Virus record (IMG/VR): IMGVR_UViG_3300022758_000040
Strand: one strand, 5' to 3'
Length of the DNA stretch: 6,493 nt
Source: a virus
The notes below the pieces were generated by a model. The model was given only the letters and a program-made list of their open reading frames with translations. It ran no database searches and was not told the origin of the DNA. Below are positions 2,406-6,493 of this stretch, one piece after another. A program made the position numbers and the translations under genes. Numbering within the stretch: position 1 is the stretch's first letter; every line of letters begins with the position of its first letter.

Positions 2406-2438
2406 CAAAGATATATGATTATTATTTAAAAGACCAAA
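2406..2438 (-). promoter_or_regulatory. Candidate Bacteroidota-type promoter (-33 TTTG / -7 TAnnTTTG) driving the - strand gene train
   Basis: On the - strand, TTTG (2438-2435) is followed by a 21-nt spacer and then TATCTTTG (2413-2406). This fits the Bacteroides consensus TTTG...TAnnTTTG at its usual 19-21 nt spacing. It sits 46 nt upstream of the ATG at 2359 in a 20% G+C region (12/60 in 2401-2460). None of the - strand genes has a Shine-Dalgarno sequence, consistent with a Bacteroidota host. Confidence 0.35.
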
Positions 2439-2496
2439 TACACACATATATTATTAACATAAATAAACAAATAAATATATGAGTGAAATTTGGTCT
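2431..2496. repeat. 9-bp inverted repeat (agaccaaat 2431-2439 / atttggtct 2488-2496) flanking a 48-nt AT-rich spacer
   Basis: Perfect complementarity checked base by base. The spacer (2440-2487) contains the tandem aaataaac/aaataaat (2461-2476). The left arm overlaps the candidate -33 element. Confidence 0.6.
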
Positions 2497-2497
2497 G

Positions 2498-2890
2498 TGA
2501 GTTTGCGTATATAAGACAAGAAAGGTATGAAAGCGATGAGGTAAATCGCTTTCCCTTCGGGCAAACTCATGTAGGCTTCGCCAATGTCCAGAGACTTTAA
2601 AGTATTCTGATTATTTTGCTCGCGGTGCTCGCGCGTTCTTCACTGCGTTCATCACTTAGGCGATCCTTCTTCCTTCGGACTTGGATCGCTTAAGTAAACT
2701 GGCCAACTGGGGTCGCAAGCGACAAGGTGTTTAGGGGAGCAGTTACCTTTAAAAGGAGAGGGAAGAAAGCTGCTATTCCGTTCGTTAAGGAAGGGAAGAT
2801 GAACCCTATGCTTCGCATCACATTTCAGTCATACTTCCCGAAATGTGGAAGGTGTATAACCACGCTACGCGCGGTTGCCAGAAGTTACTC
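2498..2890. other. G+C-rich, hairpin-dense non-coding island: candidate ssDNA replication signal or structured RNA, function unknown
   Basis: There is no - strand ORF. G+C is 28/60 (2641-2700) and 34/60 (2861-2920), against 19/60 in coding 3001-3060. Verified helices: 2498-2506/2561-2569 (9 bp); 2529-2537/2545-2553 (9 bp); 2655-2666/2683-2694 (12 bp, one G-T); 2738-2744/2768-2774 (7 bp, one T-G); 2793-2802/2829-2839 (10 bp, one bulge); 2858-2861/2873-2876 plus 2863-2865/2869-2871. Five 3-nt-loop mini-hairpins are also present. Confidence 0.6.
2617..2656. repeat. Two adjacent tandem direct repeats: tgctcgcg x2 (period 9) and gcgttcNtcact x2 (period 12)
   Basis: tgctcgcg occurs at 2617-2624 and 2626-2633. 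gcgttcttcact (2633-2644) is followed by gcgttcatcact (2645-2656), 11/12 identical. Indexed base by base. Confidence 0.8.
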
Positions 2891-2891
2891 C

Positions 2892-2929
2892 AAACAGCAA
2901 AACCCGGCGCGTATCGAGTACGGCCGGGC
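2892..2929 (-). terminator. Rho-independent terminator downstream of VP2
   Basis: The - strand reads GCCCGGCCGTA-CTCGA-TACGCGCCGGG-TTTTGCTGTTTGG. The stem is 10 bp, G+C-rich, with one bulged C (plus-strand pairs 2903-2908/2923-2928 and 2910-2913/2919-2922), followed by a T tract (2902-2899). It begins 19 nt after the VP2 stop. On the + strand the same hairpin is followed by caaatgttaaag, with no T tract, so the signal is specific to the - strand. Confidence 0.6.
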
Positions 2930-2947
2930 AAATGTTAAAGAAAAATA

Positions 2948-4096
2948 CTAACGGCGAGAACTATAATTGTAATTATAGTTAGTGTTAGAATTTTGATTAA
3001 TAGAATGAGAAAAGGTTTTAGACATAATTCTACGAGGCAAGAAATTGCCTATAGTATTACCAATACTAGTACCATATTGAACCCATTTATCAGCATCAAA
3101 ATACCGATATGTTTTCTTTTCATTTCTAGAACGATACCATTGCTCAATATTCTGACTGCGAGCATTGTCTTGAGGAAGATTAAGCCGAAGTTCTTCATTA
3201 TGAAAGGCAGCAGAAGACTCATTAGCAGCAATATTAGCAGCAATTTGAGACTCAGCAATACGATCAGCAATCTCGTTAGAAATATTCTGACCACGCGTAC
3301 GAGCAGCTGCCAAAGCTTCCTCAGCTAGAGCTTTTTTAGCCTCAGCATAAGAAAGATAGCCAGAAGCCATACGTTGGTAGTAATCCGCAGCCTTAACATT
3401 CAAATCAAGCTGTTGTTGTTGGTCAAGATACTTATTCATAATACCTTTAGCCTCATTGTCAAGAAGCATACCAGCATGCTGTGCACGCATAATAACACCT
3501 GTCATCGTCATATTATCGACTTCCTGCTGTTCCTTAGCATAACCAAGCTGAGCACGAGCCAATCCAGTAGACTTCAAATAATCACGAGTCTCATCAGTAA
3601 GTTTGCCCCAATCAATATTAGAAAGGGTTTCCATAGCTTTAGCATCAGAAAGCTGTCTAGCGCCTTGCAATTGAGATTTTTCAGATTGCATAAGCTCATA
3701 TTGGAAAATATTACCAATAGAAGAACCAATACCAGAGTAATCAGCCTGAAAAGGTTGCATCTGGGCATTACCAGAAGAAGTAGCGGTAGCACCAGCACCA
3801 ACAGAACCAGCGGTACCAGAAGAACCACCATTCATCATCAGATAGGGGTTTAAACCAGCCTCTTCGAGACGTTGGCGTTGGGCAGAAGCAGTGTTATAAG
3901 TGTTTTCCTTATTCCACATATCTTCCTGCCAGTTACGCTGCTGTATCGCCATACGCTCGTTGAACTGGTTATTCATCTGATTTATCTTATAATTCATCTT
4001 GTTAGTCTCTTGGACATTCTGCCTATTCTGTCCATTCTGCAAAGAAGAAGCACCAGCGCCAAAGAGACCACCGACAATAGAACCAAAGAGACCCAT
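2948..4096 (-). CDS. VP2: Minor capsid / DNA pilot protein (microvirus VP2, phiX174 H-like), 382 aa
   Basis: Gly-rich hydrophobic N-terminus (MGLFGSIVGGLFGAGAS), long Q/N/A-rich helical segments, and the RLEEAGLNPYLMM motif that I associate with microvirus VP2. The position after VP1 fits. The ATG at 4096-4094 overlaps the upstream stop as TAATG (4098-4094). The C-terminus is low complexity (NSNTNYNYNYSSRR). Confidence 0.85.
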   Translation of the reverse strand: MGLFGSIVGGLFGAGASSLQNGQNRQNVQETNKMNYKINQMNNQFNERMAIQQRNWQEDMWNKENTYNTASAQRQRLEEAGLNPYLMMNGGSSGTAGSVGAGATATSSGNAQMQPFQADYSGIGSSIGNIFQYELMQSEKSQLQGARQLSDAKAMETLSNIDWGKLTDETRDYLKSTGLARAQLGYAKEQQEVDNMTMTGVIMRAQHAGMLLDNEAKGIMNKYLDQQQQLDLNVKAADYYQRMASGYLSYAEAKKALAEEALAAARTRGQNISNEIADRIAESQIAANIAANESSAAFHNEELRLNLPQDNARSQNIEQWYRSRNEKKTYRYFDADKWVQYGTSIGNTIGNFLPRRIMSKTFSHSINQNSNTNYNYNYSSRR

Positions 4097-4572
4097 TACT
4101 CAGAAGAAGCAGAAGAATCAGAAGCAACAGCACCTTCTGATTGTTGTTTAGCATTCTCGGAATCAATTAAAGATTGAGCCTCACGTTCAAGAACCTCAGC
4201 ATGAGCAGCAAGATCTTTCGACCAGGCAATAATCTCAGACGGGGACTGAATATGACGAGAACGAACCGTCGACAAAAGATCATCATCAGACATCTTATCC
4301 ATAATCTGCTGAATCTGAGAAGCAGAATTACGACTCTGGCCAAACTTGGAAGCAATAGCCAAACCAGCACGAGAAGCCAAGTCCTTAGTATGGAGAATCA
4401 AACGGACATCAGAGGTATAACGAACAGGACGAGTTTTATCCGTATCGTCAATTTCAACACGAAGCTCTTCTGTAGAATCGAACTCAGGAGCAACGGCAAA
4501 AGCGTCAGGGGAAACATCAGGAACTAATAGTCCTTGATTTTCAATAGTTTTTAAATTAGAAAATCCAACCAT
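4096..4572 (-). CDS. Hypothetical protein, 158 aa from the ATG (161 aa if the TTG at 4581 is used); positional analogue of an internal scaffolding protein (VP3-like). The function is inferred.
   Basis: Open frame between VP1 and VP2 with T-rich third positions. The track start at 4581 is a TTG (caa on the + strand); the first ATG is at 4572-4570. The acidic, Ser-rich C-terminus (EGAVASDSSASSE) and the tight coupling to VP2 fit a scaffold-like role, but I recognise no motif. Confidence 0.7.
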   Translation of the reverse strand: MVGFSNLKTIENQGLLVPDVSPDAFAVAPEFDSTEELRVEIDDTDKTRPVRYTSDVRLILHTKDLASRAGLAIASKFGQSRNSASQIQQIMDKMSDDDLLSTVRSRHIQSPSEIIAWSKDLAAHAEVLEREAQSLIDSENAKQQSEGAVASDSSASSE

Positions 4573-4583
4573 AACAAACAATA

Positions 4584-6476
4584 TTAATAAGGTAAACCAT
4601 CACGAGACAAGTTACGAGCAACGTAACAACCGATATAAGAGTTAACTAACAACTGGTCTGTATCCCAAGTAGAATCAGCCTTAACGCCAAATATAGGATC
4701 AAGAACAGAGGGATTAACTTTAAAGAACTTGTAGTTCAAGACAACACGAGTATTGGGATTCTCACCACCTTCTTCATATCCATGTCCAAACCAACCAGAG
4801 AGAAGAGACTCGGTAACAGGAGATACCCAAGACTTTTGAGTAGTAGTAAAGGCACCGTTGATAAAATCAAGCTTAGTTTTCCAGTTGAAATAACGAGGGT
4901 TATAACCAGCATTGAACAGGTTAACAATAGAAGCCTTAGGAGAATTGAATATCTGAGTCATAGGAAGAACTTCCATACCAATGTTATCAAACTCAGGAAT
5001 AGGAAGTGATTCAGCATCAGTCACAAGTAATTGGCCATCTTGTCCAGTAATCGTATAATCAAGCAAAGGAACAGCATGATAAATACACATAACAACACAA
5101 TGCTCATTAGTTGTATAGGTAAACGAACCATTACCAGCACCAACACCTTTACCAGCAATCACAGCGGTATCACCAGAACCAGCAAGATTATTGTTAACAA
5201 CCTCACTAATGTCAAGATTACGAGAAATACCACCAATATAGGTACACATATTGGAAAGAGATTGGGGAAGATTAACTCCAAAATGTTTCCGAATTTGTTC
5301 ACGGTAATCCGAATCACCGGACTGGCTAATTTCTTTCCAACGTTGAAGAGCTTCGGCTTGGCGAAGAGCAAGAACAGTGAATTGACTCTGTAACTTAGAA
5401 AGATTAACCTGAAGAGTAGAACCCGAAGGAATAACATTAGATGCAGAAGCACCTTTAGCTGATAAAGATATAGGAGTAAGAGGAGCATTGTAAGAACCAG
5501 TAGTAGCGACTTCAGAAGTAGCACCAGTAGACGGGCTCTTTAAGAATACAGAAGAAGGAATAGTACCATCAGGATTCTCAACACTGATAACAGCAACATC
5601 GCCAAACTGAGAATTCGGAAGAACACCCATCAACATATCCTTATTCCAGTTACAATATCTAAGATCAAACATTGTAGGAGATTTCCAATAATCAGAACCA
5701 GAACCAGGAAGACCATTTGAACCCATTAAATTAGAAGTACAACCAGTATAATAGTCAACATTATAAGAAGAAGGGTTAGCATTTTCCCACTGAGACCAAC
5801 GGAAAAAGTCTTGATAAATCTTCTGATAAGCAAGAATAGGAAAAATATTAACAACATTATTCTGAATATACTGCTGAGAATAAGTCGAACTTTCAGAGTA
5901 CTGCAAGGAAGTAGACCACCAACGAGAACCAGAAGAAGGGTGCCCTTGGCAAAGATTTCCATAACCAAGATAACTCAATAATTTAAACGACAAATCAGGC
6001 CGAGAAAAACCAAATTGATTGGTATAAAAACCAACAGAACCAGGAGTCTCAGAATCCTTATTTAACCGATAGAGAACAGTACTAAGATCGGATAAGGACA
6101 AAGAAGGTAAATAAGTACCCAAAGACAAATTCTGCGTTAAAGAAAGCGCTTGAATCTGATTGATATCCTGCATCTGTGTCAACACAGAAGGAGCAGACTT
6201 CCAAAGAAGACGCAAAGGAACCGAGTAAAAATCAAAGTATTCACGCAAACGAGTATAAGCAGAAGTTTCAACTGGCTGAGTACGGGTAAAATACTCAATA
6301 TTGAATTTGTACTTATCTCCAGGCATAGAGATATCCCAATAGACGGGAAGGAGCTCACCTACTTTCGCAGTAAAAGCGTTTTTTCGTCCAATGTCAAAGC
6401 CAGAACGGTGAGGATGATTCTGGAGATTGGACATTCCAGTGTAAGAAGCCATAAAAAAAAAGTTAAAATTAAACAT
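4584..6476 (-). CDS. VP1: Major capsid protein (microvirus VP1, phiX174 F-like), 630 aa
   Basis: Family-typical blocks: HPHRSGFDIGRKNAFTAKVGELLPVYWDISMPGDKY near the N-terminus; LALRQAEALQRWKEISQSGDSDYREQIRKHFGV...YIGG in the middle; DQLLVNSYIGCYVARNLS at the C-terminus. Alternative starts are ATG 6452 (MASYTG...) and ATG 6434 (MSNLQNHP...). The first 8 codons (MFNFNFFF) come from a T9-containing tract and may be leader rather than coding. Confidence 0.95.
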   Translation of the reverse strand: MFNFNFFFMASYTGMSNLQNHPHRSGFDIGRKNAFTAKVGELLPVYWDISMPGDKYKFNIEYFTRTQPVETSAYTRLREYFDFYSVPLRLLWKSAPSVLTQMQDINQIQALSLTQNLSLGTYLPSLSLSDLSTVLYRLNKDSETPGSVGFYTNQFGFSRPDLSFKLLSYLGYGNLCQGHPSSGSRWWSTSLQYSESSTYSQQYIQNNVVNIFPILAYQKIYQDFFRWSQWENANPSSYNVDYYTGCTSNLMGSNGLPGSGSDYWKSPTMFDLRYCNWNKDMLMGVLPNSQFGDVAVISVENPDGTIPSSVFLKSPSTGATSEVATTGSYNAPLTPISLSAKGASASNVIPSGSTLQVNLSKLQSQFTVLALRQAEALQRWKEISQSGDSDYREQIRKHFGVNLPQSLSNMCTYIGGISRNLDISEVVNNNLAGSGDTAVIAGKGVGAGNGSFTYTTNEHCVVMCIYHAVPLLDYTITGQDGQLLVTDAESLPIPEFDNIGMEVLPMTQIFNSPKASIVNLFNAGYNPRYFNWKTKLDFINGAFTTTQKSWVSPVTESLLSGWFGHGYEEGGENPNTRVVLNYKFFKVNPSVLDPIFGVKADSTWDTDQLLVNSYIGCYVARNLSRDGLPY

Positions 6477-6493
6477 TATCAGTCCTGATAACA
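6367..6493. repeat. Terminal redundancy, copy 2 (identical to 1-127)
   Basis: Same 127 nt as 1-127. It includes the true junction between the Rep stop (6479-6481) and the capsid start (6476). Confidence 0.95.

Follow-up and report, generated by a model that had tools for sequence, protein, structure and literature searches.

How a small circular phage genome comes to hold several hundred nucleotides of folded, non-coding DNA, and what purpose this DNA serves, is the question raised by the IMG/VR virus record IMGVR_UViG_3300022758_000040 (6,493 nt, analysed here as a whole and hereafter referred to as the window). Bacteroides microviruses are among the most abundant single-stranded DNA (ssDNA) phages of the mammalian gut, and we know of no account of where replication starts in gut microviruses outside the phiX group. 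An initial annotation made from the letters alone had described a 6.4-kb microvirus; the virus type stands, and the unit length is corrected to 6366 nt owing to a terminal repeat, bases 1-127 recurring at 6367-6493. The minus strand carries all genes, and 2360-2947 is the sole sizeable non-coding stretch. It contains the G+C-rich, hairpin-dense island that had been pointed out, a block at 2490-2930 whose G+C content (0.43-0.51 over 2500-2950) contrasts with that of the AT-rich flank (0.20-0.24) and of coding DNA (~0.33-0.37), and in which the sole gene-strand open reading frame (ORF) is a 43-aa GTG ORF; the earlier annotation had described it as free of gene-sense ORFs. Since the islands of relatives differ by 1-nt indels (e.g. 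3- versus 4-nt loops), the island is not coding. Our analyses support, with moderate confidence, its interpretation as a cis-acting DNA element on the packaged single strand, an origin of complementary-strand synthesis ('ssi' or single-strand origin) that would be read by a Bacteroides enzyme. A complementary-strand origin is required by every microvirus (PMC9865509), and this requirement, together with the lack of other non-coding room in the genome, is one ground for the assignment.

The island is shared by ~100 gut microvirus contigs: by BLAST it was identified in 13 microviruses deposited in GenBank (from the faeces of lemurs, rodents and marmots), and pattern scans detected it in 60 contigs of IMG/VR and in at least 40 from metagenomes, of which many came from human gut. 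Most relatives carry a compact island of ~310 nt, while the window and a few others carry an extra hairpin-bearing insertion. On the minus strand, read 5' to 3', the elements follow each other in the order P7 module, P6, P5, lineage-specific insertion, P2 and P1 three-way domain; the best-conserved part is a 40-nt block around P7 (2851-2891), the second the P1 domain (2498-2569). In an alignment of 66 distinct compact islands (A2), a structure derived by hand and comprising 61 pairs had 97.2% of its cells paired and 16 pairs changed on both sides, compared with an average of 7.3 double-changed pairs in shuffles, none of 500 of which reached 16; sliding the partners by 1-3 columns reduced pairing to 26-42%. 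Clean Watson-Crick switches were found in P1a (GC/UA, 39/26), P2 (GC/AU, 41/22, and CG/UA, 55/10), P6 (UA/CG, 42/23) and also P5, and the 12-bp helix of the insertion covaries between GCGATCC/GGATCGC and ACGGTTC/GAACCGT. Folding energies relative to dinucleotide shuffles gave, for the two strands, z = -3.15 and -3.01 with RNA parameters and z = -4.23 and -4.24 with DNA parameters. On this comparative evidence, the structure of the island is real and has been selected. All helices listed in the initial annotation were found where it had placed them (Table 1), with the reservation that its pairing 2793-2802/2829-2839 conflicts with P6 (2819-2826/2840-2847), which had been overlooked and which covaries in relatives. 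The 9-bp P1 stem and most of P7 never vary in A2, and the P1 pairing itself is without covariation support; in P7, the GNA loop and a G.T pair are present in 66/66 sequences, and one compensatory change (CGC/GCG to TGC/GCA) recurs in a second phage lineage described below (lineage 2). The invariance of both elements points to sequence-specific recognition.

The island lies in an untranscribed gap, because a terminator hairpin stands upstream of it and a single Bacteroides-type promoter downstream, which agrees with the earlier proposal that it may not be part of the phage mRNA: both signals, the terminator of the pilot-protein operon and the promoter, lie on the minus strand. The terminator hairpin covaries in 6/10 pairs, with frequent G.U at two of them (28/66 and 25/66) [A2], and together with its T-run it is an RNA signal outside the mobile module. 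The promoter was called at 2406..2438 with what we take to be the Bacteroides consensus (TTTG, 21 nt, TAnnTTTG); just upstream of the next ORF, it sets the 3' limit of the gap. Lineage 2, in which Rep precedes the island, lacks the terminator hairpin; in L148, a member of this lineage, the island again lies between an operon end (Rep) and a single Bacteroides-type promoter. No Bacteroides-type promoter was found upstream of the island in either lineage, and no terminator after it; scans of the plus strand of the window gave neither a Bacteroides-type promoter match nor a T-run terminator.

The strand on which the island acts can be read from its loops, its mini-hairpins and its wobble pairs. 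Small loops read on the minus strand have the form GNA or GNNA with a C-G closing pair in 66/66 (P7), 66/66 (P2), 65/66 (P5) and 60/66 (P1b) sequences. The island of the window contains five mini-hairpins (GCGTAGC, GCGAAGC twice and CCGAAGG twice), all on this strand, while shuffles contain 0.23 on average and none of 5000 reaches five. Wobbles on the minus strand amount to 203 G.T cells versus 31 A.C cells. Because of these three observations, the functional strand is the minus strand of the window. A structured RNA made from the plus strand and antisense to all genes, the second hypothesis of the initial annotation, is accordingly very improbable. It had drawn on two G-T wobbles that appear as such on the plus strand, and the plus-strand folding score (z = -3.15) can be counted for it; both wobbles lie in the window-specific insertion, and in relatives the first corresponds to an internal loop (A.C or AA/C) and the second to a helix-end pair, which removes their value as a strand clue. 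On the plus strand, moreover, the loops are UNC or UNNC and fall in no known class of stable RNA loops, the invariant P7 pair becomes A.C, the 203 cells become A.C against 31 G.U, and both transcription signals and Rfam matches are missing.

The same loops bear on whether the element works as DNA or as RNA. Among the 49 four-base P5 loops of the top classes, 44 are GTTA (30), GTCA (10) or GCCA (4), which break the GNRA rule of RNA and fit the 'mini-hairpin DNA' motifs GCGNNAGC and GCGNAGC. These motifs are extraordinarily stable, poorly bound by single-strand-binding protein (SSB) and resistant to nucleases, and they have been reported where complementary-strand priming occurs in G4 (GCGAAAGC) and St-1/alpha3 (GCGTTAGC), as well as in RSF1010 ssiA (CCGAAGG) and in N4 promoters (PMC13037366). 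In A2, G.T is almost never found in the stems of the island apart from P4 and the fixed P7 pair, and is common in the terminator stem; this scarcity suits DNA stems, where G.T is costly. The loop statistics thus match DNA better than RNA, and the island is probably no RNA gene. A structured non-coding RNA (ncRNA) from the minus strand, expressed by terminator read-through or from an unrecognised promoter and serving as a regulator, decoy or scaffold, would account for the covariation and for the G.U tolerated at P4 and at the fixed P7 pair; GNRA-like loops exist in RNA, and a free-standing gene could take either orientation relative to the protein genes. We nevertheless regard it as unlikely, given the terminator immediately upstream in lineage 1 (the window type), the lack in both lineages of an upstream Bacteroides-type promoter and of a terminator after the island, P5 tetraloops that are mostly GNYA instead of GNRA, the dominance of triloops, and a near absence of G.U from most stems that is unlike the neighbouring RNA terminator. 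The initial annotation could not assign the island to any ncRNA family, and a cmscan search of Rfam on both strands of the window and four relatives likewise gave zero family matches at E <= 1 in these five genomes.

An indication that the island belongs to the packaged strand comes from lineage 2, comprising six to seven contigs (L034, L064, L148, L160, L168, L175) whose Rep measures 355 aa and whose VP1 measures ~656 aa. The Rep and VP1 of this lineage share only ~22-27% identity over fewer than 100 residues with those of the window, and the island is the sole nucleotide similarity between the lineages, at 88-92% identity over 189-319 nt and in three variant types within lineage 2. This disparity supports the earlier suggestion of a horizontally acquired module. 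The strand carrying the GNA loops is gene-sense in 91 contigs and antisense in lineage 2. At fourfold-degenerate sites, the gene strand is 60-67% T in lineage 1 and 62-65% A in lineage 2. In 101/101 contigs, the gene-inverted lineage included, the GNA loops are accordingly on the T-rich strand. In ssDNA phages, a surplus of NNT codons has been published as a mark of the strand that spends time single-stranded (PMC3278643, PMC4032129), and on this T skew the T-rich strand is presumably the packaged virion strand. The orientation of the island follows the presumed packaged strand rather than the direction of the genes, and the mirrored composition suggests that lineage 2 packages the strand antisense to its genes.

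Lineage 2 also provides a separate candidate for the Rep nick site. In 6/6 genomes, the T-rich strand carries a phiX-like motif, TATATACTTGATATAATAG, at a distance of 2.3-3.5 kb from the island; this motif closely resembles the viral-strand origin of phiX174 (caacttg/atattaataac); in L148, the motif TATATACTTGATATAATAGTCTACATGCG occurs near 562-590, on the strand opposite to the genes. In the Dulem virus 262 lineage, CCTACTTGATATTATATG is found ~100 nt 5' of P7 on the gene-sense, T-rich strand, and is likely a viral-strand origin in the same intergenic region as the island; in two of its contigs (L006 1384-1440, L119 2884-2940) a hairpin, GGAAGGTC TTCG GACCTTCC, precedes CCTACTTGATATTATATG. 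The island thus appears distinct from the probable Rep nick site in two of three lineages. A broader explanation would make it a complete origin region, in which Rep nicks the TAACTT flank of P7 to start and end the rolling circle, with or without a complementary-strand origin. The flank, GGAGTAACTTCYGG, is nearly invariant and single-stranded and adjoins a hairpin, it shares AACTT with the phiX sequence CAACTTG/ATA, no convincing phiX-like motif was found elsewhere in lineage 1, and an origin cassette would likewise track the packaged strand. We consider this explanation improbable, for lineage 2 and the Dulem virus 262 lineage retain P7 and its 5' flank although their T-rich strand carries a far better phiX-like motif (ACTTGATAT...) at another place, and a module ~90% identical where the Reps are ~22% identical is a poor fit for a Rep-specific site. 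Inside the island, a search for the phiX-type motif CAACTTG/ATATTAATAAC was negative, the P7 flank sharing AACTT only.

Taken one step further, the inverted copy, the mirrored codon bias and the nick motif would reveal negative-sense Microviridae of Bacteroides, with the island as a mobile origin cassette, specific to the host, by which the packaged strand is marked. This combined proposal is tentative, and we rate it somewhat short of probable. To our knowledge, Microviridae are regarded as uniformly positive-sense, and our literature search returned no report of negative-sense microviruses.

Of the three hypotheses of the initial annotation, the first, in which the packaged ssDNA carries a signal such as a complementary-strand origin, is best supported by the loop motifs, the wobble asymmetry and the tracking of the T-rich strand. 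The assignment to complementary-strand synthesis is made because of this tracking, the separate nick site, the mobility across unrelated Reps, the untranscribed location and the match of the loops to those of known ssDNA priming sites. In the scenario that we propose, the circular ssDNA would enter the Bacteroides cell and the island would fold into very stable hairpins capped by C-GNA-G or C-GNNA-G loops. These hairpins would keep SSB off and expose the P7 module, with its TAACTT flank, and the P1 stem to a host priming enzyme. Our leading guess for this enzyme is primase, as at phage G4, ahead of RNA polymerase (as in M13 or plasmid ssoA) and of a PriA primosome. The enzyme would then lay the primer from which the genome is converted to the double-stranded replicative form. 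Because the module would be read by a host enzyme and not by the phage Rep, it could move between unrelated microviruses of one host, always on the packaged strand. Another role on the single strand, as a packaging or condensation signal, a fold resistant to nuclease or SSB, or a decoy for ssDNA-sensing defence, would equally explain why the orientation follows the T-rich strand, and mini-hairpins do resist nuclease and SSB (PMC13037366). Such a role is distinctly unlikely, as a priming site is obligatory and the genome offers no other candidate location for it. We also know of no packaging signal needed by microviruses, in which packaging is coupled to Rep and the procapsid.

Several observations weigh against a complementary-strand origin. 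The evidence from orientation comprises few independent events, namely one lineage flip and the variant exchanges, and homologous recombination could have kept the latter in register; a free-standing RNA gene would match the T-rich strand by chance about half the time. C-to-T pressure alone would raise T.G on a T-rich strand, and because of the T.G excess so produced the wobble count is not independent of the evidence from orientation and T bias. GNA and GNRA-like loops occur in RNA too, and the 4-bp stem P4 tolerates two T.G pairs, which is odd for DNA. At 300-430 nt, the island is two to three times as long as known phage minus origins (~140 nt in G4). The invariance of P1 and P7 does not say what recognises them. 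Lastly, in lineage 1 the search for a phiX-like origin gave only poorly conserved matches in coding regions, and the TAACTT flank of P7 could serve there as the viral-strand origin.

The host assignment derives from a Bacteroides chromosome fragment (L140) that contains an integrated member of the phage family and a flanking gene 99% identical to Bacteroides rodentium. Because of this integrated member, the host is, by its genomic context, Bacteroides, and some members of the family are temperate. At the junction (L140 3600-4377), a dif-like sequence is found ~90 nt beyond the island. Phage TATATTAAACATTCTGCTGATATTG meets host at the near-identical TATATTAAACATAATGCTGATATTG (L140; L189, Bacteroides rodentium; L001 and L004, ~90 nt 3' of the island), and ATTAAACATAA resembles what we take to be the XerD arm of dif; the junction suggests XerCD-mediated lysogeny. 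The island itself as an integration module, a dif-like attP for host XerCD, is very doubtful. Relatives do enter the Bacteroides chromosome at a dif-like site that belongs to the same intergenic region, but this site falls in the AT-rich spacer, ~90 nt beyond the island, and the window lacks the exact motif; a 28-bp recombination site needs no hairpins, and the covariation and the strand-specific loops would be left unexplained.

The features of the window are compiled in Table 1. In P6, the window has CACA/TGTG in place of the CTGA/TCAG of the family, and the counterpart of its P5 in the compact family is AGCC[GTTA]GGCT.

Table 1. Positions of the island, its elements and the surrounding signals and genes in the window.
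Feature	Position	Strand	Remarks
Conserved structured module (island proper)	2490..2891	minus (gene-sense, T-rich, presumed virion strand)	~100 contigs
Terminator-like hairpin of the pilot-protein (VP2) operon	2903..2928	minus	outer stem CCCGGC/GCCGGG, inner stem CGTA/TACG; consensus scan
T-run TTTTGCTGTTTGG	2890..2902	minus	directly after terminator hairpin; conserved in A2
P7 5' flank GGAGTAACTTCTGGC	2877..2891	minus	nearly invariant, single-stranded; TAACT in every lineage; alignments A1, A2
P7, universal core hairpin, AACC-G-CGC [GTA] GCG-T-GGTT	2858..2876	minus	contains GCGTAGC mini-hairpin
P7 3' flank ATACACC	2851..2857	minus	conserved; alignments A1, A2
P6, 8-bp helix, 13-nt loop	2819..2847 (2819-2826/2840-2847)	minus	compensatory UA<->CG in 23/66
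P5 mini-hairpin ATGC[GAA]GCAT	2808..2818 (2808-2811/2815-2818)	minus	holds GCGAAGC; three of three stem pairs covary
Window-type insertion, ~125-200 nt	2583..2790	minus	missing from compact family; adds three hairpins
Insertion hairpin, 12 bp	2655-2694 (2655-2666/2683-2694)	minus	around TCCGAAGGA mini-hairpin (2672-2678)
Insertion hairpin GTCG[CTTG]CGAC	2712-2723	minus	
Insertion hairpin	2738-2774	minus	
P2 mini-hairpin GGC[GAA]GCC	2574..2582	minus	GCGAAGC; GNA loop 66/66; 2/3 pairs covary
P1 domain	2498..2569 (stem 2498-2506/2561-2569)	minus	9-bp invariant stem TGAGTTTGC/GCAAACTCA; encloses P1b and P1a
P1b, CC[GAA]GG	2554-2560	minus	GNA loop 60/66
P1a, 9 bp	2529-2537/2545-2553	minus	GC<->UA switch 26/66
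Bacteroides-type promoter, TTTG-N21-TATCTTTG	2438->2406	minus	for downstream small-ORF/Rep operon; single such match in window
Rep/VP4	113-1795	minus	
Small ORFs, three		minus	
Pilot VP2	2948-4096	minus	
Scaffold	4096-4581	minus	
VP1	4584-6476	minus	

Other candidate readings were discarded. P3 (GGAGAG/CTCTCC) was dropped because an unpaired CT-rich tract occupies its place in a third of the sequences, a long-range TATAG/CTATA pairing because of CTAAA variants without compensation, and a GGAG/CUCC closing helix around P7 because of a lack of covariation. A reading of P1 as a promoter mimic (TGAGTTTG, similar to TAnnTTTG) is speculation only, its spacing to any TTTG being unsuitable. Searches for relatives of other kinds were negative: ARAGORN reported neither a transfer RNA nor a transfer-messenger RNA, BLAST of the island against plasmids (PLSDB) showed no similarity, and an exact-pattern scan of 185,579 species genomes with the 29-nt P7 motif gave 0 matches, which leaves both a host RNA gene and a mimic of a CRISPR (clustered regularly interspaced short palindromic repeats) repeat unsupported.

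Some individual records deserve mention. In GenBank, PP511330 (L003 1463-1666) and four further records of Dulem virus 257 have a 'hypothetical protein' coding sequence annotated within the island; given the frame-breaking indels among relatives, this gene call is probably false. Two island copies in L081 (2050-7740) are explained by a 2.84-kb near-perfect tandem duplication with small indels, probably an artefact of mixed-strain assembly. In L061, the P3/P4 segment is internally duplicated in tandem (repeated CTGGAGAGCTGCTCTTTTCCGCCT units), giving an island of ~440 nt, and these duplications show that the middle of the element is plastic. In a 9.5-kb human-gut contig (L110 3640-3710), a truncated RND-transporter ORF is joined right after the P7 module (...TAGATTTTGGC/TGTGGG), which could be a true recombination or an assembly chimera.

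A defined candidate origin constitutes a target for replication assays, as well as a route to the Bacteroides priming enzyme and its recognition rules. The element, expected to be host-specific, could also be used as a sequence marker of host range, and as a marker it orients genomes and flags a lineage whose packaged strand is apparently antisense to its genes. Antisense packaging, if true, would alter the annotation of such contigs and the reading of strand-specific viromes. The candidate negative-sense microviruses, a by-product of the analysis of the island, may prove more surprising than the origin itself. Non-coding replication modules, finally, pass between lineages of microviruses with hardly any resemblance in their proteins.

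The island probably belongs, in our moderately confident judgement, to a known functional class, the complementary-strand origins, without homology to its known members. It has features that define the ssi and single-strand origin (sso) class: a fixed orientation on the presumed ssDNA strand, selected intrastrand pairing, and a non-coding location outside transcription units. Its closest parallels are the primase-dependent origins of the Bullavirinae G4, St-1, alpha3 and phiK, each likewise an intergenic, multi-hairpin, non-coding block of the virion strand read by a host enzyme. Mini-hairpins are common to both, with GGCGAAAGCC in G4 and GCGTTAGC in St-1/alpha3 compared with GCCGTTAGGC in P5 and GGCGAAGCC in P2; in the annotated G4 origin, GGCGAAAGCC (C-GAAA-G) lies in the primer-template region and adjoins the primer start. 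In contrast to those ~140-nt origins, the island measures 300-430 nt, has Bacteroides as its host and has been exchanged as a cassette between distant lineages, and there is no sequence homology. A comparison with G4 hairpins I-III and the CTG located 3' of hairpin I revealed no homology, the shared elements being the mini-hairpin motif and a GGCGAA(A)GCC...CTAC likeness at P2; 3' of P7, the start triplet CTG of E. coli DnaG occurs in the consensus but is missing in the window, and is thus unconserved. P2 and its flank (window 2574-2590, GGCGAAGCC-TACATG) resemble hairpin I and the primer start of G4 (L188 274-299, GGCGAAAGCC...CCCTACTG), which may be chance.

The phiX174 n'/PriA site, the minus origin of that phage, is a single hairpin of ~55 nt read by PriA and thereby differs from the multi-hairpin island with its invariant sequence blocks. 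As an intergenic hairpin of the virion strand, it likewise starts complementary-strand synthesis (PMC9865509). In phiX174 (L187 4326-4340), the viral-strand origin is directly followed by the mini-hairpin CCCCGAAGGGG, with the same C-GAA-G motif as in the island. The intergenic region of the Ff phages (M13, f1, fd) is similar in architecture, with a terminator and a promoter flanking ~500 nt of hairpins that carry the replication signals of the packaged strand. That region combines packaging signal, minus origin and plus origin, whereas the probable nick site lies outside the island in two of three lineages, and no homology is apparent. Rfam phage ncRNAs are comparable in size, G+C enrichment and covarying helices, and the island differs from them in its DNA-like loops and in the lack of transcription signals.

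The sso elements of rolling-circle plasmids (ssoA, ssoT, ssoU and ssoW) are folded, non-coding sequences of 150-300 nt with one working orientation on the displaced strand; host-specific and read by the host RNA polymerase, they pass as cassettes between plasmids whose Rep genes are unrelated. The island does not qualify as an ssoA by the CS-6 hexamer TAGCGT, which its P7 contains only with a GTA loop (48/66) and which is hence not conserved; it has no demonstrable promoter-like geometry and no similarity in PLSDB. It is in being folded, oriented and cassette-like that the island resembles the plasmid sso class.

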